A DNA stretch of 23,480 nt from the NCBI GenBank assembly GCA_037924335.1, contig JAXSMZ010000024.1, positions 1 through 23,480 on the forward strand, read 5' to 3'. Below are positions 997 to 23,479 of the stretch, piece by piece (position 1 is the stretch's first letter; the number at the start of each line of letters is the position of its first letter). Origin of the DNA: Aquificaceae bacterium (GTDB lineage Bacteria; Aquificota; Aquificia; Aquificales; Aquificaceae). Made by a program: the position numbers and the translations under genes. The notes beneath the pieces are model-generated. The model was not told the DNA's origin and made no database searches. It worked only from the letters and a program-made list of their open reading frames with translations.

Positions 997-2025
997 ATGG
1001 AAAGGGTAATGATCTTCAATCCCTCGGGAGACAGGGAAGCAAGCAAAAGGTCAATAGTGCTTGGAAATCCTACAAATATAATGGAGCTAAACAACATCAA
1101 GTATCAATGGGCTTTTGAGCTTTACAAGACTATGGGATTTACCAACTTTTGGATACCAGAAGAGATACCTATGCAAGAGGATAAAAAGCAGTACGATAAT
1201 GAACTTTCACCCTACGAAAGGAGGGCTTATGAGCTAGTCCTTAGCTTTTTAATAGCCCTTGACAGTTATCAGGTTAACATGCTCAAAGAGTTTGCAAGGT
1301 ATCTTTCAGCTCCTGAGCTTGTCATGTCCATAACAGCACAAGAGTTTCAGGAAGCTCTTCATTCCTATTCATACCAGTTTATTTTAGAAAGCGTAGTATA
1401 CCCAGAAAAGGCTGATGAGATATACAACTACTGGAGAGAAGATAAGGTTCTGATGGAGAGAAACCAAGTTATAGCCGAGCTATACAACGAATTTATTAGA
1501 AAGCCTACAGAAGAAAACTTTATAAAAGCTGTCTTTGGCAACTATGTTTTAGAAAGTCTATACTTTTACTCTGGCTTTGCCTTTTTTTACACGTTGGGAA
1601 GACAGAACAAGGTTAGGAGCACAGTTCAGCAGATAAAGTATATAAATAGGGATGAGCTGACGCATGTAACCTTGTTTAGGAACATAATAAACGCCTTAAA
1701 AGAGGAGCAGACTGAGCTTTTCACTCCAGATATAGAAAGGTGGATATACGACTTCTTTAGGTTTGCTACAGAAAAGGAGATAGAGTGGGGTAAGTATGTA
1801 ACTCAGAATCAAATACTAGGTATAAATAATGCCTTAATAGAAAGGTACATAAAGTACTTAAGCAATTTAAGGCTAAGTCAAATTGGATATAAACCACTTT
1901 ATCCCGATATAACAGACAATCCTATGAAGTGGATAGACACTTTTAGAACTATAAACGACACAAAAACAGACTTCTTCCAGGCAAAGCCTCAGACCTACGC
2001 AAAAAGAAGCGAGTTAAGGTGGTGA
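997..2025 (+). CDS. nrdB: Class Ia ribonucleotide-diphosphate reductase beta (R2) subunit
   Basis: Ferritin-like R2 motifs: FWIPEEI, LIALDSYQ (Asp ligand), QEALHSYSY (Glu/His ligands plus radical Tyr), LESLYFYSGF, YINRDELTH and the C-terminal KTDFFQAKPQTY. Strong SD present; no intein. Confidence 0.95.
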   Translation: MERVMIFNPSGDREASKRSIVLGNPTNIMELNNIKYQWAFELYKTMGFTNFWIPEEIPMQEDKKQYDNELSPYERRAYELVLSFLIALDSYQVNMLKEFARYLSAPELVMSITAQEFQEALHSYSYQFILESVVYPEKADEIYNYWREDKVLMERNQVIAELYNEFIRKPTEENFIKAVFGNYVLESLYFYSGFAFFYTLGRQNKVRSTVQQIKYINRDELTHVTLFRNIINALKEEQTELFTPDIERWIYDFFRFATEKEIEWGKYVTQNQILGINNALIERYIKYLSNLRLSQIGYKPLYPDITDNPMKWIDTFRTINDTKTDFFQAKPQTYAKRSELRW

Positions 2026-3504
2026 TCTTCTCGTCAAAAACAGAAAAACCAGCGTCAGAAGTATGCTCAAGAGAGCTATATAAGATGCATCTTTCAAGGC
2101 ATCCTGTACAGCATAGGTGCCAGATAGGGTGCTTTGAAACTGCCCTAAAGCTACCTTATACCTAAGCATATTTAGATGGGACGCTTCCTGCATAAAATGT
2201 GTAAAGGTATCGGAGACCAAAGCTGACCTTATACCGTTTATCTCATCGTAATGAAAGGCTTTGCCCGTCTCAAGCCTATAAGTTGCTATTGATGTAGCTA
2301 TGGATGCTCCCATCAGTCTTGCATAGTTGTAAAGGGCTGTACCTATGGGGATCTGGTGCTGTTGGAGACTTTTAAAGGCCAATGCCGTAAGCGGTGCAAA
2401 GAAAAAACCCATACCGCTTCCTAGGAGACACATGTAGAAAAAGATCTTTACCTTTGGTGTGTAATAATCAAGGTGGGAAAGGAAAAAGAATAGAGTTATG
2501 AAAAGTATAGTTTGGGAGATAAGTAAGAGTATCTTGGGTTCCATCTTATCGCTCAGTCTACCACCCAAAAGTGCAAAGACACCAAGAAGAAAGGCATAGC
2601 CCAAGAAGTTTAAACCCGTTTGGAATGTAGGTACATTCCTTAAGCTTTCTAGGTATATAGGTATGAGATAAATAACTTGAAAGAAGACAAAGCCAAATAT
2701 TACTAGGAAAGTAATGACAGCGTACAGATAGTTTGGTTCTTTAAATATGGAATAATCTATCAATGTACTCTCTCCAATCAGTTCAAATAAGATAAAAAGC
2801 AAAAAGAAGATCACTGTTAAAGTGAAGGCATAGAAGCTCTTCATTGAATAGAACCAACCCCAGCTCTCACCTTTGGAAAGAAAAACTATGAAGCTTATGG
2901 AGGAGACAGAGATGGACAAAAAACTCGGAAGATTAAAAGGAACTCTTACCTTCTGTCCCATGTCTGGAAGCATAAGGTAAGCCACCGGTAAAAGCAGGAC
3001 CACTATAGGTATGTTCATATAAAATATCCATCTCCATGAAAAATACTCTACCATGTAACCGCCAACCGTTGGACCAAGCCCAGGAGCAAAGGCAACAGCC
3101 ATAGCATAAAAGCCCATAGCTGTACCGCGCCTTTCTGCTGGAAAAAGGTTAAAAAGTATAGACTGGGAAGATGGTATGAGTAGGCCTTCACCTGCACCCT
3201 GTAAGAACCTAAATAGGACCATCTCCTCAAGACTGGAAGATTGCCCAGATAGAGCACTACCTAAACTGAAGAGAAGAAGTCCAAGAATGTATGTGCTCTT
3301 AAGACCCAGACGCGCAACTGTTGTGTTGAAAGCGAGTATGGTTATAGCCGTTGCAACTATATAGCTGATAGCTACCCATTCTATACCGTACATATCCGTT
3401 TGCAATGGGGCTATCATCTTTGGTATGGCGACGTTCGTGCTTGTGATCCCCAAAACAGCTAGGAATGTACCAAGGACCACTAGGAAGGCATAGAACCAAG
3501 CCAT
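2014..3504 (-). CDS. DHA2 (EmrB/QacA) family MFS efflux permease, divergent second paralogue
   Basis: About 14 hydrophobic segments with motifs FRFLQGAGEG, APGLGPTVGGY and WRWIFYMNIP. Start moved from the track's 3573 to ATG 3504 (MAWFYAFLVV), which gives a 25-bp rather than 94-bp overlap with the upstream gene and aligns with its paralogue's TM1. Confidence 0.88.
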   Translation of the reverse strand: MAWFYAFLVVLGTFLAVLGITSTNVAIPKMIAPLQTDMYGIEWVAISYIVATAITILAFNTTVARLGLKSTYILGLLLFSLGSALSGQSSSLEEMVLFRFLQGAGEGLLIPSSQSILFNLFPAERRGTAMGFYAMAVAFAPGLGPTVGGYMVEYFSWRWIFYMNIPIVVLLLPVAYLMLPDMGQKVRVPFNLPSFLSISVSSISFIVFLSKGESWGWFYSMKSFYAFTLTVIFFLLFILFELIGESTLIDYSIFKEPNYLYAVITFLVIFGFVFFQVIYLIPIYLESLRNVPTFQTGLNFLGYAFLLGVFALLGGRLSDKMEPKILLLISQTILFITLFFFLSHLDYYTPKVKIFFYMCLLGSGMGFFFAPLTALAFKSLQQHQIPIGTALYNYARLMGASIATSIATYRLETGKAFHYDEINGIRSALVSDTFTHFMQEASHLNMLRYKVALGQFQSTLSGTYAVQDALKDASYIALLSILLTLVFLFLTRRSPP

Positions 3505-5027
3505 GACCTGACCCTTCTCTTCATGTACAAAAAGAGCAAAATGAATAGGGGTAAAGAGCCCAAAAGTCCCCAAAGACCTGCTGAGAAAAAGGTTCTCTGG
3601 AAAGAGTCTGAATAAGCATATAGCTGTTGTATACCATAGAACACAGCCTCCGCCTTATCTTCTGGAAATAAGCTCGTAAGCCCCTGAAGGTAATCCATAA
3701 CTATATTGTGATTTTGAACCTCGACAGACCTTTGGAAGTTCTCCCACATATACCTTTGTAAGTCATTGGTTGCCAGAGCAGTACCAAAAGACCCTCCCAC
3801 AAACCTTATGTAATGCATAAGGCTTATACCAAGCGTTGTTTTCTCTCCAAGCTTTTTAAGAGCCAGAGTAGTAGTGGGTGCAAAGAAAAAGCCCATACCA
3901 ATGCCCATGACTATTAGGCTCAGAGAAGAACTCCAGGAAGGTGTAAAGTAGTTAAACTTTGGGACTATAAAGAGCGCTGAGTAAATGTAAAGGAAGGTGG
4001 CGACTGTAAGAGAAAGTATCTCCGACCTTTTGTCTGCAATCATACCAGCAACGGGTGAAGACAGACCAATGGCAAGAGCCATGGGAAGTATATGAAGCCC
4101 AGTATGCATGGTTGATATACCTTTCAGATTCTCGTAGTAAAGTGGTATAAGGTAAAAGACCTGATACATAGAAAAGCCAAGCAAGAAGCAGTAAATTAGA
4201 AAAGCTACAAAAAACTCCTTTATCCTAAATATAGAATAGTCAATGAGAGGTTCCATCGATAAAAGCTCTGAGAGAAAGAAAAGCAGAAGGGAGAAAACAG
4301 ATATAAGGGACATATAAAGTATGAAGTCTGAGTTCCACCAACCTTGCTGCTGACCCTTGGAAAGAACGATGAGCAAAGAAACGGTGAACATGGATACAAA
4401 GCCAAAGGATATGAAGTTAAGCCTAAAGGTCTCCTGTGGCTTTTGATGGGGAAGGGTCAGAAAGGCAAGCAGGAAGTTTATTATCCCTATGGGCAGGTTT
4501 ATGTAAAATATCCATCTCCAGTTTATGTGCTCTGTTATGTAGCCACCTAATGTAGGACCCAAGGCTGGTGCAAAGCTCACACCAAGCCCGTATATGCCCA
4601 TGGCAAGACCTCTCTTTTCTGGTGAATAGACACTAAAAAGAAGGGACTCTGCACTGACAACTATGAGAGCCTCACCAAAGCCCTGGACAGTCCTTGATGC
4701 GATCATAAGGTCCAGAGAGGCTGCCTGACCACAGAAAAAGGATGCAAAGACAAAAAGGAAGAGACCTATAAGGAATACCCTCCTTAGACCTATTTTGCTT
4801 TCAAGCCAATGGACTATAAGAATACCAGAGGCTGCCATGGTCATGTAAGCTGTTATCACCCATTGGACTCCGTAAAGGTCTGTGGACAGAGGGGCCATCA
4901 TCTTGGGAACTACTATGTCTACTATTGTGGTATCAAGTATGGCCATAAAAACACCTACCATAAGAGATAAGGTTATAAGCATCCTCTCCAAAGGGTTAAC
5001 TTGCTCATAAAGTGGCTTTTGGTTCAT
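3480..5027 (-). CDS. emrB: DHA2 family MFS efflux permease EmrB
   Basis: Motifs FMAILDTTIV (motif D1), WVITAY, RTVQGFG, APALGPTLGGYIT (motif C) and WRWIFYINLPIG. Directly follows an EmrA-type adaptor with an ATGA overlap. Confidence 0.92.
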   Translation of the reverse strand: MNQKPLYEQVNPLERMLITLSLMVGVFMAILDTTIVDIVVPKMMAPLSTDLYGVQWVITAYMTMAASGILIVHWLESKIGLRRVFLIGLFLFVFASFFCGQAASLDLMIASRTVQGFGEALIVVSAESLLFSVYSPEKRGLAMGIYGLGVSFAPALGPTLGGYITEHINWRWIFYINLPIGIINFLLAFLTLPHQKPQETFRLNFISFGFVSMFTVSLLIVLSKGQQQGWWNSDFILYMSLISVFSLLLFFLSELLSMEPLIDYSIFRIKEFFVAFLIYCFLLGFSMYQVFYLIPLYYENLKGISTMHTGLHILPMALAIGLSSPVAGMIADKRSEILSLTVATFLYIYSALFIVPKFNYFTPSWSSSLSLIVMGIGMGFFFAPTTTLALKKLGEKTTLGISLMHYIRFVGGSFGTALATNDLQRYMWENFQRSVEVQNHNIVMDYLQGLTSLFPEDKAEAVFYGIQQLYAYSDSFQRTFFSAGLWGLLGSLPLFILLFLYMKRRVRSWLGSMPS

Positions 5028-13345: not shown

Positions 13346-16300
13346 ATGATAAAAAGTCTTTTCTTGGAGCTTTGTCCTAACTGCGGAGGAAACATAGATG
13401 CAGAAAGGCTCAGCAAAGGTCTACCCTGCGAAAGATGTATGCCCTTTGAAAAGGGACATGTATGCGATGTGCTAAAAGAAGGTGAGATAAAAAGACTCTG
13501 TGAAATTGAAGATAAAGTAAGAGAGTGGGAGAAGACCTTTGAAAGGTACATAAAGTCAAGACCTTGGAGTTTGCAATCTCTTTGGGCGAAGAGAGCTATC
13601 CTCGGTAATTCCTTTGCCCTTTTGGCTCCAACTGGAGTAGGGAAAACATCCTTTGGATTGAGCTTTGCTCTCTATATGGCGAAAAGGAGAAAAAAGTCTT
13701 ACCTTATCCTGCCTACAAAGCTCCTCGTGGACCAGACCTCAAGAAAGCTAAAAAGCCTAGGAGTTGAGGAAAGAGACATTCTCGTTTTTGACAAGGAGAG
13801 CAAAAAGAGAAAGGAAGAAAAGAAGAAAAGGCTCAAAGATGGGAAGTTCCTCATACTTGTTTCTACTTCCATGTTCTTCTACAAAAATATTGAAATAATG
13901 CCGAAGGATATATCCTTTTTGTTTGTGGACGATGTAGACTCCTTTTTAAAAACAGCAAAGAACATAGATAAGGCTCTTTATCTTCTTGGTTTTTCAGAGG
14001 ATGATGTGCAGAAGGCTATGAAGCTGATAAGGCTTAAGGAGAAGTTCAAAAAATTAGAAGAGGACTGGAAAGATATAGAAGAGTTATCTAAGGAAGTAAG
14101 CGAGATTTCAAAGAAAGCAAAGGGTGTTCTTGTTGTTTCCTCAGCCACATCCAACCCAAGGTCAAGCAGGATAAAGCTTTTCAGGGAATTCTTAGGCTTT
14201 GAGGTTGGGACACCAACCTTCTATCTGAGGAATATAAAAGACCTATACTCTAACTTTCAAGAGGGGTCTTTAGGGAGTTGGGTCAGAAGGTTAGGTAAAG
14301 GTGGCCTTATCTTTCTCCCCTCCGATATGGGAAAGGAGAAGGTCAATGAGGTCATAAAAGAGTTAGAAAGAGGGGGTATAAAGGCTGTTTCTTACGAGGA
14401 CTTGGGCGAAGAGAACCTGAGGCTCTACGAAAAGGGTAAGATAGACGTCCTAGTTGGAATAGCATCTTACAAAAACCCTTTGGCAAGAGGTTTAGACCTT
14501 CCTCATGTGGTGAGGTATGCCCTTTTCTACGGTGTTCCCAAGATGGTCATATCCTTGGAGTTTGAAAAGAACCTTTCACATCTTCTTTGGGCTTTAACAT
14601 CCATAAGACCTCACATAGCCAAAAGGCTCAGCGAAAGCATAAAAAAGGTAGACCAGTGGATAACAAAGCTCAGAAGCTACCAGTATCTGAGCGAGGATTA
14701 CCTAAAGGAGAGGCCAGAGCTTGAAAGGAAGATAGGAGAGCTAAGGAAGGAGATAGAGGACTTTTTGACAAGTCAAGAGGTCTTGGAGATACTAAAGCTG
14801 TCCGATGAGATAACCCTCAGGTATGAAGAGGGAGAGCATTACCTTGTTGTCTCAGATGCTACTGGATATTTGCAGGCAAGCGGTAGGACTTCAAGGATGT
14901 ATGCTGGGGGCATAACGGAAGGTCTCTGTATAACGTTGGTGGATGACCAAAGGGCTTTTAAACACCTTCAGAGGAGGGTAAGATGGTGGAGCGATGAGAT
15001 AAGTTTTATTCCCATGGATAACATATCCTTAGATGAGGTTTTGCAGAGGATAGACCAAGACAGGGCAAAAGTGAGGAGATTCCTAAAGGGTGACGTACCA
15101 GCTCAAAACCAAGAAGTTCTAAAGCCTGTTCTCATAGTAGTAGAATCCCCCAACAAGGCAAGGACTATTGCCAACTTCTTTGGGAAAGCTATAAGGCGTA
15201 GGGTGGGAAACCATGAAGTCCTTGAAACATCCGTAGAAGACAGATACCTTATGATAACTTCTTCCTTTGGTCATGTTCTGGACCTTGCCAAGGATGTGGG
15301 CTTTCATGGTGTTTATATAAACGATTCATTAGTTCCGGCTTACGCCGTCATAGAAGGTAAGAGGGAGATAGTAGACAGTCTTAGGAAGCTTGCCTCCGAA
15401 GCTTCTGAAATCCTCATAGCAACAGACCCAGACACGGAGGGAGAAAAGATAGGATGGGACCTTATGGAGCTCTTAAAGCCATATACCAAGAACATAAGAA
15501 GGATGGAGTTTCATGAAGTTACAAAAAAGGCCATAATAAAAGCTTTAAAAGAACCAAGGGATTTTAACATAAACCTCGTTAAATCCCAGATAGTTAGGAG
15601 AGTATCCGATAGATGGGTAGGCTTTGAATTTTCAAGGTCTTTGCAGCAAGCTTTCTCCAAAAACTGGCTTTCAGCCGGCAGGGTACAAACTCCTGTACTT
15701 GGTTGGATAGTAAATAGGGAAAAAGAATACAGAAGGAAGGTTTACAAGGTTTTTGCAAGCGCGAGAGAAGGGGAGAAGAGTTTACGCTTTGAGTTTAGCT
15801 TTGAAGACAAAAAGTCAGCCCAAGAGTTCTACCAAAATCTCCATGAGATAAGGATAAAGTTGATTAACGTAAGGGAGGAGACAAAAAACCCACCACCACC
15901 TTACAGCACTGATACGCTTTTAAAGGATGCCAACTCCAAGCATAGGTTTTCTGTCCCAAAGACCATGCAGCTTGCCCAAACGCTCTTTGAACTTGGCTTT
16001 ATAACCTACCATAGAACTGACTCTGTAAGGGTTTCAGACTTTGGAATAAACTTGGCGAAGGAATACATAAGGGAGGAGCTGGGCGAGGAATACCTTACTC
16101 CAAGGACTTGGCAAGAGGGGGGAACTCATGAGTGTATAAGACCTACAAAGGTCATGGAGGCTGAGGAGCTACGCTCCATGATGCTAAGCGGTCAGCTGGA
16201 AGGTATAAACAAAGAGCATGTGATGCTGTACGACCTTGTTTTCAAAAGGTTCATGGCAAGTCAAACAAGACAAGTGAGATTAAAGGTTGCAGATGTTCTA

Positions 16301-16774
16301 ATAGAGGCTTTGGATAGAGAGCTAAAGCTAACCCTCACCACTCAGATAGTAGAAGATGGTTGGAACAGACTTCTTCCTATTGAACTACAACCTTTTATGG
16401 AAGGAACTTTTAAGGTACATGCGGAAATAAAAGAGCTTCCAAAAGCCTTTCTATATACGCAGGGAGATATCATTCACGAGATGAAGGCAAAGGGGATAGG
16501 AAGACCGTCCACCTATGCCTCCACCATAGAGAAGCTTCTCAATAGGGGCTATGTGATAGAAGTAAAGGGTTTTCTAATACCAACTAAGCTTGGAAAAGAA
16601 GCTTACATGTACATGAGCAGTAGGGAAGATATGAAATCCTTTGTTTCAGAAGAGTTTACAAGGCATTTGGAGTACCTCATGGACATGGTTGAGGAGGGAA
16701 AGGTAGACTATGAGAATATACTTAAGGATTTATACAATAGTATAATATCCTTGGAATCTCTATTGGAGGTGTAA
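13346..16774 (+). CDS. rgy: Reverse gyrase (SF2 helicase-like domain fused to type IA topoisomerase)
   Basis: N-terminal CPNC...CERC Zn finger, Walker A APTGVGKT, DDVD, SAT, RGLDLP, QASGRTSR, Toprim VESPNKA and ATDPDTEGE, SAGRVQ, catalytic ITYHRTDS and GIGRPSTY. Confidence 0.98.
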   Translation: MIKSLFLELCPNCGGNIDAERLSKGLPCERCMPFEKGHVCDVLKEGEIKRLCEIEDKVREWEKTFERYIKSRPWSLQSLWAKRAILGNSFALLAPTGVGKTSFGLSFALYMAKRRKKSYLILPTKLLVDQTSRKLKSLGVEERDILVFDKESKKRKEEKKKRLKDGKFLILVSTSMFFYKNIEIMPKDISFLFVDDVDSFLKTAKNIDKALYLLGFSEDDVQKAMKLIRLKEKFKKLEEDWKDIEELSKEVSEISKKAKGVLVVSSATSNPRSSRIKLFREFLGFEVGTPTFYLRNIKDLYSNFQEGSLGSWVRRLGKGGLIFLPSDMGKEKVNEVIKELERGGIKAVSYEDLGEENLRLYEKGKIDVLVGIASYKNPLARGLDLPHVVRYALFYGVPKMVISLEFEKNLSHLLWALTSIRPHIAKRLSESIKKVDQWITKLRSYQYLSEDYLKERPELERKIGELRKEIEDFLTSQEVLEILKLSDEITLRYEEGEHYLVVSDATGYLQASGRTSRMYAGGITEGLCITLVDDQRAFKHLQRRVRWWSDEISFIPMDNISLDEVLQRIDQDRAKVRRFLKGDVPAQNQEVLKPVLIVVESPNKARTIANFFGKAIRRRVGNHEVLETSVEDRYLMITSSFGHVLDLAKDVGFHGVYINDSLVPAYAVIEGKREIVDSLRKLASEASEILIATDPDTEGEKIGWDLMELLKPYTKNIRRMEFHEVTKKAIIKALKEPRDFNINLVKSQIVRRVSDRWVGFEFSRSLQQAFSKNWLSAGRVQTPVLGWIVNREKEYRRKVYKVFASAREGEKSLRFEFSFEDKKSAQEFYQNLHEIRIKLINVREETKNPPPPYSTDTLLKDANSKHRFSVPKTMQLAQTLFELGFITYHRTDSVRVSDFGINLAKEYIREELGEEYLTPRTWQEGGTHECIRPTKVMEAEELRSMMLSGQLEGINKEHVMLYDLVFKRFMASQTRQVRLKVADVLIEALDRELKLTLTTQIVEDGWNRLLPIELQPFMEGTFKVHAEIKELPKAFLYTQGDIIHEMKAKGIGRPSTYASTIEKLLNRGYVIEVKGFLIPTKLGKEAYMYMSSREDMKSFVSEEFTRHLEYLMDMVEEGKVDYENILKDLYNSIISLESLLEV

Positions 16775-20968: not shown

Positions 20969-22211
20969 CCTCTTTGCATTCCAAAAGCACATAATTTCCA
21001 TTGAACTCTTTACCTTCAACCAGAACATTGCAAGATGAAAAATCAGATGCATAATTCTTCTTTGTTACAATGAGAGCCTTTTGTCTTACATCTGGTTTTT
21101 CCAAAAATCTTATACATCTCTGGGAGTAAAAGACCAAAGCCGAATCTTCTGACCTGTAAAAGTAAACGTCTCCAATGTAATTCTTTATAATGGGATAGGC
21201 CCTTGGCGTAAACCTATCTTTTTCGTAAAAGTAAGAGTAAGATAGAAGAAAAAGTAGAAGAGGAAAAGCCAAATAGACTACTCTCTTTATGTACTTCTCT
21301 GTGGCACAGTGAGATAGCATAATGGCTAATGGTGGATAGGAAAAGAGAAGATAGTGATGTAGCCTGTTCTTGGCAAGGCTAAAAAAAACAAGCACATAAA
21401 GGAACCAAAAGATATAGGGAAGTAGCTCTTTCCTTAATACCCTTATGAGCTTTGGGTATAGAGGGATATAAAAGGCTGTTGATGCAAGAATTACGAGAAG
21501 GTAGTAATAAAAGGGATAATTGTGGACACTTCTCTGCCCTGTGTATCTCATAATGTTTTCGTAGATAAAAAAATTGTAAAAGTAGAGATAGCCAAACTTG
21601 TAAAACATATAAAAGTACCAACTCCCACCTACAAGCAGAAAGAGGGAAAAACCCCTAATCGTGAAAATTCTTAAATCCCTCTTCCAAAGTATATAGACAC
21701 CTAAGGGAAGTAAAAAACCAACTGGACCTTTTGTCAAAAAGGCTAAAGCTATGAAGATCCAGCCTATGCTTGTTCTTTTCTCCAAGAAAAAGTAAAGCCC
21801 CCCTATCATAAAGAAGTTAAGAAGCATCTCAGGAACAACACCCCTTGACTCTATCCAAAGATGGGGAAAGGTCAAAAGGATGAGAAAGCCCCTTTTTGCT
21901 AAAGTATCCCCAAAGTTCTCCTTTGCTATCATGTAGGTAAAGAGGGCAACTCCAACTGCTGAGAGTCCAGAGATCAACCTCGCTGAGAACTCGCTCAGAC
22001 CAAAGAGATGCGAAGAGAGAATTACCATCCAGTAAAGAAGTGGTGGCTTTTCAAACCTTGTATTGCAGTTATAATAGGGCACCAAAAGGTTACCATCTTT
22101 TATCATGTTTAAAACAGCATCCATGTTCCTTCCTTCATCAAGGGACGTAAAGCTCAAAAACCAATTTCCAAAGACAAAAAAATAGAAGGAGAATAGAACA
22201 AGGCTAATCAT
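20946..22211 (-). CDS. ArnT/GT39 (PMT-2) polyprenyl-phosphate-sugar-dependent glycosyltransferase; candidate lipid A galacturonosyl transferase (RgtF/RgtD-like)
   Basis: Motifs DEGRN, RFEKPPLLYW, FGLSEFSARL and LAFLTKGP in a multi-TM protein. Coupled to the PAP2 gene by an 8-bp overlap. Sugar specificity is inference. Confidence 0.88.
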   Translation of the reverse strand: MISLVLFSFYFFVFGNWFLSFTSLDEGRNMDAVLNMIKDGNLLVPYYNCNTRFEKPPLLYWMVILSSHLFGLSEFSARLISGLSAVGVALFTYMIAKENFGDTLAKRGFLILLTFPHLWIESRGVVPEMLLNFFMIGGLYFFLEKRTSIGWIFIALAFLTKGPVGFLLPLGVYILWKRDLRIFTIRGFSLFLLVGGSWYFYMFYKFGYLYFYNFFIYENIMRYTGQRSVHNYPFYYYLLVILASTAFYIPLYPKLIRVLRKELLPYIFWFLYVLVFFSLAKNRLHHYLLFSYPPLAIMLSHCATEKYIKRVVYLAFPLLLFLLSYSYFYEKDRFTPRAYPIIKNYIGDVYFYRSEDSALVFYSQRCIRFLEKPDVRQKALIVTKKNYASDFSSCNVLVEGKEFNGNYVLLECKEVIEHNIP

Positions 22212-22719
22212 AAGCTGATCTTAACATCATTTTAACCAACTTATAGGAAAAGATGCCTATAAGAGCACCAGAGATCACATCTAGGGGAAAATGAACTCCC
22301 AAGTATACCCTTCCGTATGCTATTAGGAAGGCGTAAGCAAATAAAAGAAATTTCAGGATAAAGGGGGCTCTTTGAGAGAAAAAGCAGGCAAGCAAGAAGG
22401 CCATAGCTGTATCCCCCGATGGGAAAGACCTATGGTAGAGACTCTCAAGAAGGTAGACATCCTTTAGCATGCTTGCTGGCCTTGGTATATCAAATAGGGA
22501 TTTTAGGAGGGTTACTGTAAGGCTTTCCAGGGCTACAGAAAAAACAAAGAGCTTTAATCTTTTCCTTTGAAACATGAAAACGAAAAGCAAAGCAGGAATC
22601 AGCACCCATCCCTTCCCAAGAAGGTAAAAGCTGCTAAAAAACTCATCGAGCAATGGATGTCTTGCATGGTTTATAAGGTAAAAGAGCTCCACATTTAGGA
22701 TAAGGTTCTCTACGTTCAT
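22204..22719 (-). CDS. lpxE: PAP2 family lipid phosphatase, probable lipid A 1-phosphatase LpxE
   Basis: C1 K73-x6-R80P, C2 PSGD (variant of PSGH), C3 R137-x5-H143-x3-D147; 171 aa. Adjacent to an ArnT-like transferase, matching my recollection of the Aquifex aeolicus lpxE context. The family call is firm; the symbol is less so. Confidence 0.72.
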   Translation of the reverse strand: MNVENLILNVELFYLINHARHPLLDEFFSSFYLLGKGWVLIPALLFVFMFQRKRLKLFVFSVALESLTVTLLKSLFDIPRPASMLKDVYLLESLYHRSFPSGDTAMAFLLACFFSQRAPFILKFLLFAYAFLIAYGRVYLGVHFPLDVISGALIGIFSYKLVKMMLRSAYD

Positions 22720-22870
22720 AGCCTAATATGGTGAACTACTCCATCCTATAGAAGATGGAGCTTCCTGTGGAGTTTGCAGGTCTTAAGCCTGCCTTATCCA
22801 CAGAGGCTGGTTCACACTCAGCCACTACGAGGTATGGCACTGAGCCATTCCCCCATACTTGGTATCTTCT
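22711..22870 (-). ncRNA. Predicted TnpB omega-RNA (reRNA): scaffold to 22731 plus flank-derived guide; 5' and 3' limits approximate
   Basis: Four consecutive hairpins at 22857..22826, 22823..22805, 22803..22765 and 22760..22739. The loop GUGAAC (22815..22810) is complementary to the terminal GUUCAC (22736..22731), as in the known omega-RNA pseudoknot. Confidence 0.8.
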
Positions 22871-23479
22871 TGGCACTGGAATATGAGAAAAGCTAAGAGT
22901 AAAACCTGCTTTCCTCAAAATGTTTAAGCTACCATTAGTGTCTGCATTAATCGCTTTGCCATCCCTTGTCAGATATAGCCCTCTCTTTATCCTCTTGCCT
23001 GAAGCAGATGCTTGAGAGGTATAAGCTTCATCTGCTTCTACATAATGAATGCTATACTTTTGGCATTTGTGCTTTATGAGATCTCTGAGATAGCCAAGAG
23101 GAATAAAGATCATGTTTTGATTGTTCTTTTTGCCAAGATTGGGTTCATAAAAGATAGAGGAGTTGTTGCCTACCACTACACAATCTATGCCATTTACAAG
23201 GCAATACTCCACTACCATCTTGGCTGTCTTATGCATGTAATCTCTTATCTGGTTCTTCCTTTTTTCTTGAACAACCGCCAGCCTCTTGGTAATAGTCTTT
23301 ATATCTTGCTTTGCATAGACTGATTTTATCCTTACCAACTCTTTGTTAAACCACTGATTTATGGATTTAAGTTTTCTGCCATCTACTATGAAACTATTAT
23401 CATCTGTATCAGTGCATGTAGCAAGATTGTCTATTCCAAAGTCTATTCCAAGTGCTTTATATGGTTTTGTTTGGTCTTT
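22736..23479 (-). CDS. tnpB: RNA-guided endonuclease TnpB, 5'-truncated by the window edge
   Basis: The frame is open from 23479, upstream of the track's TTG at 23338: ...KALGIDFGIDNLATC (RuvC-I)...FIVDGRKLKSINQWFNKE...IRDYMHKTAK...VVVGNN...NLGKKNNQN...DEAYTSQ...GKRIKRGLY...INADTNGSLNILRK (RuvC-III). Confidence 0.95.
   Translation of the reverse strand, partial: KDQTKPYKALGIDFGIDNLATCTDTDDNSFIVDGRKLKSINQWFNKELVRIKSVYAKQDIKTITKRLAVVQEKRKNQIRDYMHKTAKMVVEYCLVNGIDCVVVGNNSSIFYEPNLGKKNNQNMIFIPLGYLRDLIKHKCQKYSIHYVEADEAYTSQASASGKRIKRGLYLTRDGKAINADTNGSLNILRKAGFTLSFSHIPVPRRYQVWGNGSVPYLVVAECEPASVDKAGLRPANSTGSSIFYRME
22739..22760 (-). repeat. Subterminal right-end hairpin (TnpA recognition palindrome)
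   Basis: CTCCATCTT-CTAT-AGGATGGAG is a 9-bp stem with one G-T pair. Eight nt (TAGTTCAC) follow it to the element end. Confidence 0.82.

Follow-up and report, generated by a model that had tools for sequence, protein, structure and literature searches.

The window examined here, a 23,480-nt stretch of DNA, is the whole of contig C24, one of 39 contigs in a 1.53-Mb Aquificaceae assembly (G000), and contains the 3′ part of a tnpB gene (22736..23479, minus strand) that encodes RuvC-I to RuvC-III and a C-terminal tail overlapping a predicted omegaRNA. The frame runs for 247 open codons from the contig end to a stop codon at 22738..22736, and since the window is an entire contig the 5′ part of the gene lies beyond its end. 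A PAP2-family phosphatase gene (22204..22719, minus strand; PF01569) starts 11 nt past the right end of the element; six of six other genomes of the genus have this gene without an adjacent tnpB, one of them with just 94 nt of upstream sequence. Outside the element, a reverse gyrase gene (13346..16774, plus strand; TIGR01054, 1354.5 bits against a cut-off of 471.7) indicates a high-temperature host and bears out what the initial annotation had said of it. Eighteen of the 19 sequencing runs containing the stretch are labeled hot-spring metagenome, and no RNA sequencing run was found among the matches listed. The nearest named relatives of the TnpB, again among the matches listed, come from an Aquificales bacterium, a Hydrogenobacter sp., Thermotogaceae and two archaeal MAGs.

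Profile searches assigned the gene product to TnpB (NF040570, 118.5 bits, cut-off 100), with PF01385 and PF07282 also above cut-off; a phmmer search of the PDB with the fragment gave no match below E 0.02, and a profile search of the PDB did match. Codon read-out on the minus strand placed all four motifs where the initial annotation had put them. The RuvC-I Asp (GAC, 23441..23443) in GIDFG is D13 of the fragment and D204 in a second version of the gene on contig C23, described below. At the canonical RuvC-II Glu position there is a Gly (GGC, 23168..23170; G104) in VVVGNN, 91 residues past the first Asp, and 47 residues further on lies the relocated catalytic Glu (GAA, 23027..23029; E151, Glu342 in C23 numbering) in ADEAYTSQ, a column that pairs in a profile alignment with the Pro preceding xYTS in AsCas12f1. 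The RuvC-III Asp (GAC, 22940..22942; D180, Asp388 in C23 numbering) falls in NADTNG, a motif of the NADxN type. The zinc-finger segment, YTSQASASGKRIKRGLY, is free of cysteines, as had been claimed. Judged by these motifs, the window TnpB is of the rearranged RuvC-II type, lacks a zinc finger and has all three catalytic residues present; its features also agree with the text description of the RIIr-5 clade (PMC10691335). Kinship with Fanzors or pro-Fanzors was rejected because RuvC-I reads DFG, whereas the definition needs DPG together with Ealt, and assignment to Cas12f or type V CRISPR systems was rejected on the score (NF049972, 24.3 of 450 bits) and on the transposon right end downstream of the gene. 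The label "compact" also had to be dropped, since the protein would measure about 438 aa in its deleted and 455 aa in its C23 form, compared with 408 aa for ISDra2 TnpB and 415 aa for Geobacillus homologues.

To place these features we aligned 442 distinct proteins, drawn from the best 120 of 5513, 47 of 47, the best 120 of 2236 and the best 150 of 3247 matches together with cluster members; three of the searches feeding this set were queried with the deleted protein, and two of these used words from the junction region. Among the matches listed, the RuvC-II column holds Gly in all 435 homologues with a residue there (7 gaps) and the relocated column holds Glu in 430 of 432 (10 gaps, two other residues); the RuvC-I column is Asp in 428 of 430 (12 gaps, two other residues) and the RuvC-III column in 430 of 431 (11 gaps, one other residue). 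Fifteen of the 442 did not cover the segment from the Glu to the third catalytic residue (Asp3). A CxxC..CxxC arrangement was present in one of the 427 listed homologues that did, and at least two cysteines in 17 of the 427. By this alignment none of the three features (Gly at RuvC-II, a relocated Glu and no zinc finger) sets the window TnpB apart from its clade, a very large branch in which they are the usual state; the rearrangement and zinc-finger loss have both been published. The Glu-to-Asp3 spacing was 35–65 residues in all 427 covered homologues among the matches listed (mode 48) and 34 or less in none of them, and in all 74 measurable genome loci it was 46–56 (6 of 80 loci were not measurable). 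The two shortest listed homologues, P0329 and P0440 (spacing 35–36), are rich in Cys, and no Cys-poor one among those listed falls below 40. P0329 and P0440 are distant homologues in which four or five cysteines accompany the relocated Glu and an RGLY hairpin, and from these sequences they are possible intermediates linking zinc-finger and zinc-free forms.

Contig C23 of the same assembly opens with a full-length version of the gene, in which 454 codons are open to the contig end. The window and C23 versions are 87% identical over 790 nt, and neither exact protein is present in a collection of 15 billion proteins. C23 carries 51 extra nucleotides, placed after the Ala-Ser-Ala that follows YTSQ and before SGKR, so that by alignment the extra-short segment of the window is an in-frame 51-nt (17-residue) deletion relative to C23. 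The junction (23003..23004, minus strand) lies in the zinc-free TNB segment, 8 residues past the catalytic Glu, and shows no microhomology or repeat at the chosen placement. The Glu-to-Asp3 spacing is 29 in the window and 46 in C23. C23 has the segment typical of the zinc-free branch (at least 40 residues, an Asp-x-acidic motif and an aromatic residue before SGKR), and the window allele does not; on sequence it is a clade member by descent that has lost the segment feature. The columns deleted are among the best conserved in the listed homologues (acidic residue 354 in 99%, Asp352 in 87%, Pro357 in 84% and Phe/Tyr367 in 96%), although the deleted stretch also includes a variable middle, columns 358–366, that is gapped in 16–20% of them. 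The segment is kept in four of four JGI matches, two of which are close relatives, and all 17 residues are kept in eight of eight close relatives covering it. The deletion was absent from every other protein or locus examined, and a 23-mer specific to the window, taken from beside the junction, had no match in a metagenome scan. The initial annotation had described an unusually minimal TnpB with a segment shorter even than in Cys-less homologues; the second half of this description agrees with our counts (29 against at least 40 in the Cys-poor homologues listed), but the layout is normal for the clade and the additional shortening is a private deletion that removes residues conserved in 84–99% of the listed homologues.

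Other rare residues occur near the deletion (Ser143 in 6 of 433 listed homologues, Ala149 in 0 of 433 and Val49 in 2 of 433), and the deletion sits at the edge of a tract (23004..23206, minus strand) that is 84% identical to C23, with 32 of 203 bases differing and flanks 99–100% identical. Codons 91–159 differ from C23 by 17 synonymous and 12 non-synonymous codons, and about half of all codon differences between window and C23 are synonymous (19 vs 23). Identity to C23 forms a mosaic over four tracts (90.6, 100, 84.2 and 98.9%). The 23004..23206 tract would fit recombination or a strain mosaic, and strain recombination or mis-phasing appears, from this pattern, to have shaped the window haplotype. 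Elsewhere in the family, four Geobacillus homologues of 284–289 aa (P0121, P0123, P0128 and P0129) have a common in-frame deletion removing RuvC-II and the TNB region; P0121 is recorded on 8 contigs, which indicates that this nuclease-dead form has spread or persisted. A literature search that took in few subscription papers found no report of the window's deletion or of removal of the zinc-free segment.

A structure model of the fragment, built with a 150-sequence alignment, has a RuvC fold with a mean pLDDT of 84.8. Its structural matches are the RuvC lobes of Cas12f, TnpB and Fanzor2 (Z 16.6 for AsCas12f, 13.8 for ApmFz2 and 12.5 for ISDra2). The block at residues 151–160, which holds the catalytic Glu and the junction, drops to a pLDDT of 59 between blocks of 97 and 90, a dip without a matched control, as the single-sequence AlphaFold2 model of C23 reached a pLDDT of 37 and an alignment gap alone can lower confidence. 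The distal hairpin is modeled at about 90, and the C-terminal tail over the omegaRNA at 50–60.

The right end of the transposon (22731..22761, minus strand) consists of a subterminal hairpin (22761..22738) and a terminal TTCAC (22735..22731). Similarity to other copies stops at 22731, at the TTCAC after the hairpin, which marks the end of the element, and many contigs in four runs also break there. The predicted omegaRNA scaffold (22731..22900, minus strand; 5′ limit approximate) overlaps the tail of tnpB. Its region folds with a z-score of −3.74, none of 200 shuffles being equally stable, and 11 of 53 predicted pairs show two-sided change across five related copies; compared with Rfam it gave no family at gathering score and one chance match. 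The predicted guide, flanking host DNA 3′ of TTCAC (22711..22730, minus strand), covers the start codon of the PAP2-family gene; its length follows known TnpBs. On C23 the left end has TTTAT and the GAAGA guide, and its hairpin is broken (−2.1 kcal/mol compared with −8.5, −9.0 and −9.5 in three intact left ends). Elements of the Geobacillus-group homologues have the same TTTAT, left-end GAAGA and right-end TTCAC. No TnpA was found between the left end and tnpB on C23, and a weak test did not find a minus-strand sigma-70-like promoter between the left end and the ATG. No Y1 TnpA was found in the 39-contig assembly with PF01797 and NF033573, for which controls matched in 6 and 5 of 14 genomes; as there are intact short elements with this right end, a TnpA may lie in repeats that were not assembled. 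The assembly likewise has no TTTAT or TTTAA site followed by a 10-nt seed match, one mismatch allowed, as is expected if the target is the empty site.

Several further observations concern the element family as a whole. In the hot-spring subclade (window 22736–22900; L032, L033, L042 and L132) the frame runs through the omegaRNA and stops inside the right end, and this read-through adds a low-confidence C-terminal tail of 40–60 residues; because the tail DNA co-varies as RNA structure, the tail is probably a by-product. Near-identical members of the subclade (the P0001 cluster, P0004 and P0006) are labeled Thermofilaceae, Nitrososphaerales archaea and Thermotogaceae, which reflects either cross-domain transfer in hot springs or mis-binning. 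The assembly contains gene-free short elements of about 125–230 nt (C2:113611-113839, C4:2101-2326, C23:8380-8604 and C20:9569-9695), with a left end after TTTAA and a right end TTCAC, that resemble PATEs as these are described in PMC10055086. In some of them a part that looks like the omegaRNA of a canonical TnpB element is retained, and these could be guide donors in trans. The right-end motif has a summed depth of 1289–3873 across four hot-spring runs. There are 23 matches to the TNB-domain profile (PF07282) in the assembly, several at contig ends (e.g. C37, C39, C27 and C1), and the TnpBs at C37 and C39 have canonical Cys motifs and the same right end as the zinc-free TnpB. The left-end guide co-varies with the TAM, GAAGA with TTTAT and GAAGT with TTTAA (C23, L001:1363-1417; C4/C2/C16), as expected from guide–TAM pairing in IS605 ends. 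From these ends, two TnpB lineages with different TAMs (TTTAA and TTTAT) appear to use one transposase, none being found in the assembly.

The relation between the two versions of the gene was approached through their flanks. In a relative (G006) the DNA ahead of the PAP2-family gene is uninterrupted, its last 11 nt are similar to the window flank, and the predicted guide matches the 3′ side of this empty site. An ungapped scan of 3,062,564 positions of G000 with the 24 nt that precede this site placed their best match (19/24) precisely on the left flank of the C23 element, with TTTAT at its end; one position scored 19/24 and one 18/24. With all 83 nt of the upstream flank in G006 as query, blastn did not match the C23 flank. 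Since the left flank on C23 and the right flank in the window rebuild one G006 empty site, C23 and C24, which share a 790-nt overlap, are read as overlapping through the element. If this one-site reading holds, the insertion lies between a YnfA-family gene (C23) and the PAP2-family gene (C24), the left end on C23 would belong to the window's copy, the missing 5′ half is C23:790-1362 and the deleted protein has about 438 aa. C23:790-1362 has no stop and no frameshift. The YnfA-family gene was not found with the query used in four of four genomes of the genus. The assembly yielded a single left end and a single 5′ half for this type of TnpB. Depth of the shared stretch relative to the host flank was 22.3 vs 20.2 in run X5, 5.8 vs 8.3 in X1, 12.1 vs 8.5 in X2 and 8.2 vs 5.7 in X6; the ratios (1.1 in X5, 0.7 in X1, 1.4 in X2 and X6) are nearer one copy than two, depth being a poor measure of copy number and the indication a weak one. 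From flanks and depths together, we judge it quite likely that a mixed population carries one insertion in two allelic versions. The G006 empty site (L123:60-94) reads TCTAT, a single change from the predicted TAM TTTAT. In the L033 and L042 genomes the element sits before a nearly identical 3′ flank, which suggests one insertion kept across a species-level split.

Taking these results together, we consider that the window probably holds a decaying deletion allele of an immobilized, non-autonomous IS200/IS605 element and that the deletion is probably damage. TnpB with its omegaRNA is reported to cut the TAM-flanked empty donor site, favoring retention of the element (PMC10055086). By analogy with known TnpBs, the intact enzyme would bind an omegaRNA read from the right end, recognize TTTAT next to a guide-matching sequence, that is, the empty donor site left by excision, and cut it with Asp204/Glu342/Asp388, so that the element is retained. 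If C23 and C24 are neighbors and a mixed population holds both versions as alleles, the broken left-end hairpin would make excision rare and would relax selection on the nuclease. The deletion would then remove the conserved core of the zinc-finger replacement right behind the catalytic Glu and would most likely be damaging, weakening or abolishing cleavage; RNA-guided binding may remain. This account draws on the spacing of 29 against 35–65 and the loss of conserved columns (homologues among the matches listed), the broken left end, the low pLDDT at the Glu block, the rare residues nearby and the precedent of large in-frame deletions in Geobacillus homologues. Several features pull the other way: the triad, frame, right end and omegaRNA fold are intact, and the deletion preserves the reading frame; the model retains a RuvC fold, with the distal hairpin at a pLDDT of about 90; zinc-finger enzymes work with a spacing just 5–7 residues longer (34 from Glu467 to Asp501 in ApmFz2, 35–36 in P0329 and P0440); and synonymous changes make up about half of the differences from C23, unlike what long decay would leave. 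In addition, a contig of run X1 bridges the junction and window-type alleles are near host depth in X2, where the junction itself is not seen, so the allele is not vanishingly rare.

Much of the same evidence could be read as an active, naturally minimal variant, in which the loss trims a surface loop, leaves the Glu positioned between both Asp residues and does not stop cleavage. The intact D-E-D triad, frame, right end and omegaRNA would suit this, as would the mean pLDDT of 84.8, the structural similarity to AsCas12f (Z 16.6) and ApmFz2 (Z 13.8) and the variable columns 358–366, gapped in 16–20% of the listed homologues. TnpB is reported not to grip the distal duplex through its TNB domain, which in ISDra2 is an insert of 33 residues with four Cys that makes no contact with that duplex (PMC10097598), so some shortening might be tolerated. 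Against this, none of the 427 covered homologues among the matches listed is this short and Cys-poor shortening among them ends at 40; natural shortening leaves in place the Asp-x-acidic motif and the aromatic residue ahead of SGKR, which this allele has lost; model confidence is low exactly at the Glu loop; and the left end is broken. We therefore regard an active minimal variant as unlikely, and it is equally doubtful that the deleted allele still folds and cuts at high temperature. Activity of the deleted TnpB is, on its sequence, unlikely rather than disproved.

The mosaic identity to C23 and the 790-nt contig overlap raise the prospect that the junction is an assembly artifact, a mis-phased path through a strain mixture with no cell carrying the deletion. 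The sole listed contig that bridges the junction has a depth of 4.17 and carries C23-type bases beyond it on the 3′ side; it comes from run X1, possibly the source sample. This contig was assembled separately, however, and crosses the junction without a gap over 336 nt, with 153 and 183 nt on either side; it differs from the window at 5 other letters, of which the three listed agree with C23. Runs X1 and X5 also have contigs with additional sequence at the junction point, and X6 has loose ends at this point; in X5 and X6 part of 23060–23339 is uncovered at 85% likeness, a gap on which we place no weight. The junction offers no repeat or microhomology that would enable a 51-nt skip, and mis-phasing accounts for the flanking alleles but not for the junction. 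An artifact is thus improbable; the bridging contig indicates that the junction exists in reads, which is not proof of wide spread.

TldR is the name given to RNA-guided repressors derived from TnpB, and the window protein could be such a binding-only derivative or on the way to becoming one, since the deletion adjoins the catalytic Glu, the N-terminal recognition half is spared if the C23 5′ part is common to both alleles, and the predicted guide overlaps the start of the PAP2-family gene. But the guide overlaps that gene merely because the element sits there, in cis it follows TTCAC and not TTTAT, the assembly has no seed-matched site, the allele is conserved in no relative examined and the catalytic residues are unmutated, all of which make this reading very improbable. 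That the same damage lies in one of two copies within a single genome, in tandem or split by a later rearrangement, would suit the depth ratios of 1.4 in X2 and X6 and the 23 PF07282 matches to other TnpB fragments, but the flanks rebuild one empty site, a single left end and a single 5′ half were found and the ratios in X5 (1.1) and X1 (0.7) are lower, so that we give it very little credence.

By itself the locus adds little: a rearranged active site and a lost zinc finger are the rule throughout a very large branch, and thermostable TnpBs, one of them rearranged, have already been characterized. The intact C23 version nevertheless joins a full-length TnpB and a reverse-gyrase host to a predicted TAM (TTTAT) and omegaRNA and makes an entry for a screen of heat-stable nucleases. 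The proposal that the locus encodes a thermostable RNA-guided nuclease candidate is upheld as regards the host, which has reverse gyrase, but it fits the intact C23 version better than the deleted one, and the intact allele is the better tool candidate. The two versions, a naturally occurring pair, could also be used to ask whether TnpB requires its zinc-free TNB segment. Should the deleted allele prove active, its 29 residues would be the shortest Glu-to-Asp (TNB) segment among the TnpBs examined, the zinc finger and its zinc-free replacement would both be dispensable, and the alleles would be a matched pair for TNB function.

Comparison with published systems places the locus among known rearranged nucleases. 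That the catalytic Glu is relocated in some TnpB clades and in Fanzors, as the initial annotation had held, is well documented: the RIIr-5 clade is described as having Gly and an alternative Glu (PMC10691335), and the same is true of TnpB2 (PMC10530073), of the set defined by Ealt with D-phi-G (PMC10711439) and of the Fanzor2 ApmFz2. As described, the RIIr-5, TnpB2 and Ealt sets resemble the window TnpB in Gly, NADxN, D-phi-G and IS605-type ends, and in rearranged TnpBs the alternative Glu lies about 45–50 residues past the Gly, compared with 47 in the window; unlike these sets as described, the window TnpB lacks a zinc finger and has a private 17-residue deletion. According to the PNAS survey, the zinc finger has been lost in some large branches, is conserved in major clades except RIIIr-4 and is unclear in function (PMC10691335). 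ApmFz2 (PDB 9b0l) has the triad Asp324/Glu467/Asp501 with Gly416 (PMC11832414; bioRxiv 2026.06.23.733943), giving rearranged spacings of 92 and 51 against 91 and 47 in the window, and is structurally similar (Z 13.8); Fanzors are described with DPG in RuvC-I (PMC10711439) and a zinc finger, whereas the window TnpB has DFG and none.

Among thermophilic enzymes, TvTnpB (TvoTnpB) from Thermoplasma volcanium is reported to have the alternative Glu, a 60 °C optimum and no collateral activity (bioRxiv 2023.06.13.544871; PMC10530073), but it differs from the window element in its TAM, TGAC, and in having an associated TnpA. ISDra2 TnpB and SisTnpB1, the latter reported as a thermostable TnpB active at 37–85 °C, share the domain order and the right-end omegaRNA of the window; ISDra2 TnpB has the canonical Glu278, a four-Cys TNB (PMC10097598) and, at 408 aa, a shorter chain than the roughly 438 aa that the window protein would have. 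The closest comparison is with a 415-aa Geobacillus/Anoxybacillus TnpB (P0088 and P0456), which is 45% identical to the C23 version over 415 aa and like the window protein in its Gly/Glu layout and zinc-free segment, but unlike it in a spacing of 48 and in the absence of a long C-terminal tail. This protein is possibly the GstTnpB2 of ISGst2 (WP_047817673.1; PMC10055086), an accession absent from the cluster members among the matches listed; the catalytic Asp of the 415-aa protein is residue 195, compared with the reported D196 of GstTnpB2. ISGst2 is reported with the TAM TTTAT, left-end GAAGA and right-end TTCAC (PMC10055086), the same signals that we found at the ends of the element described here.
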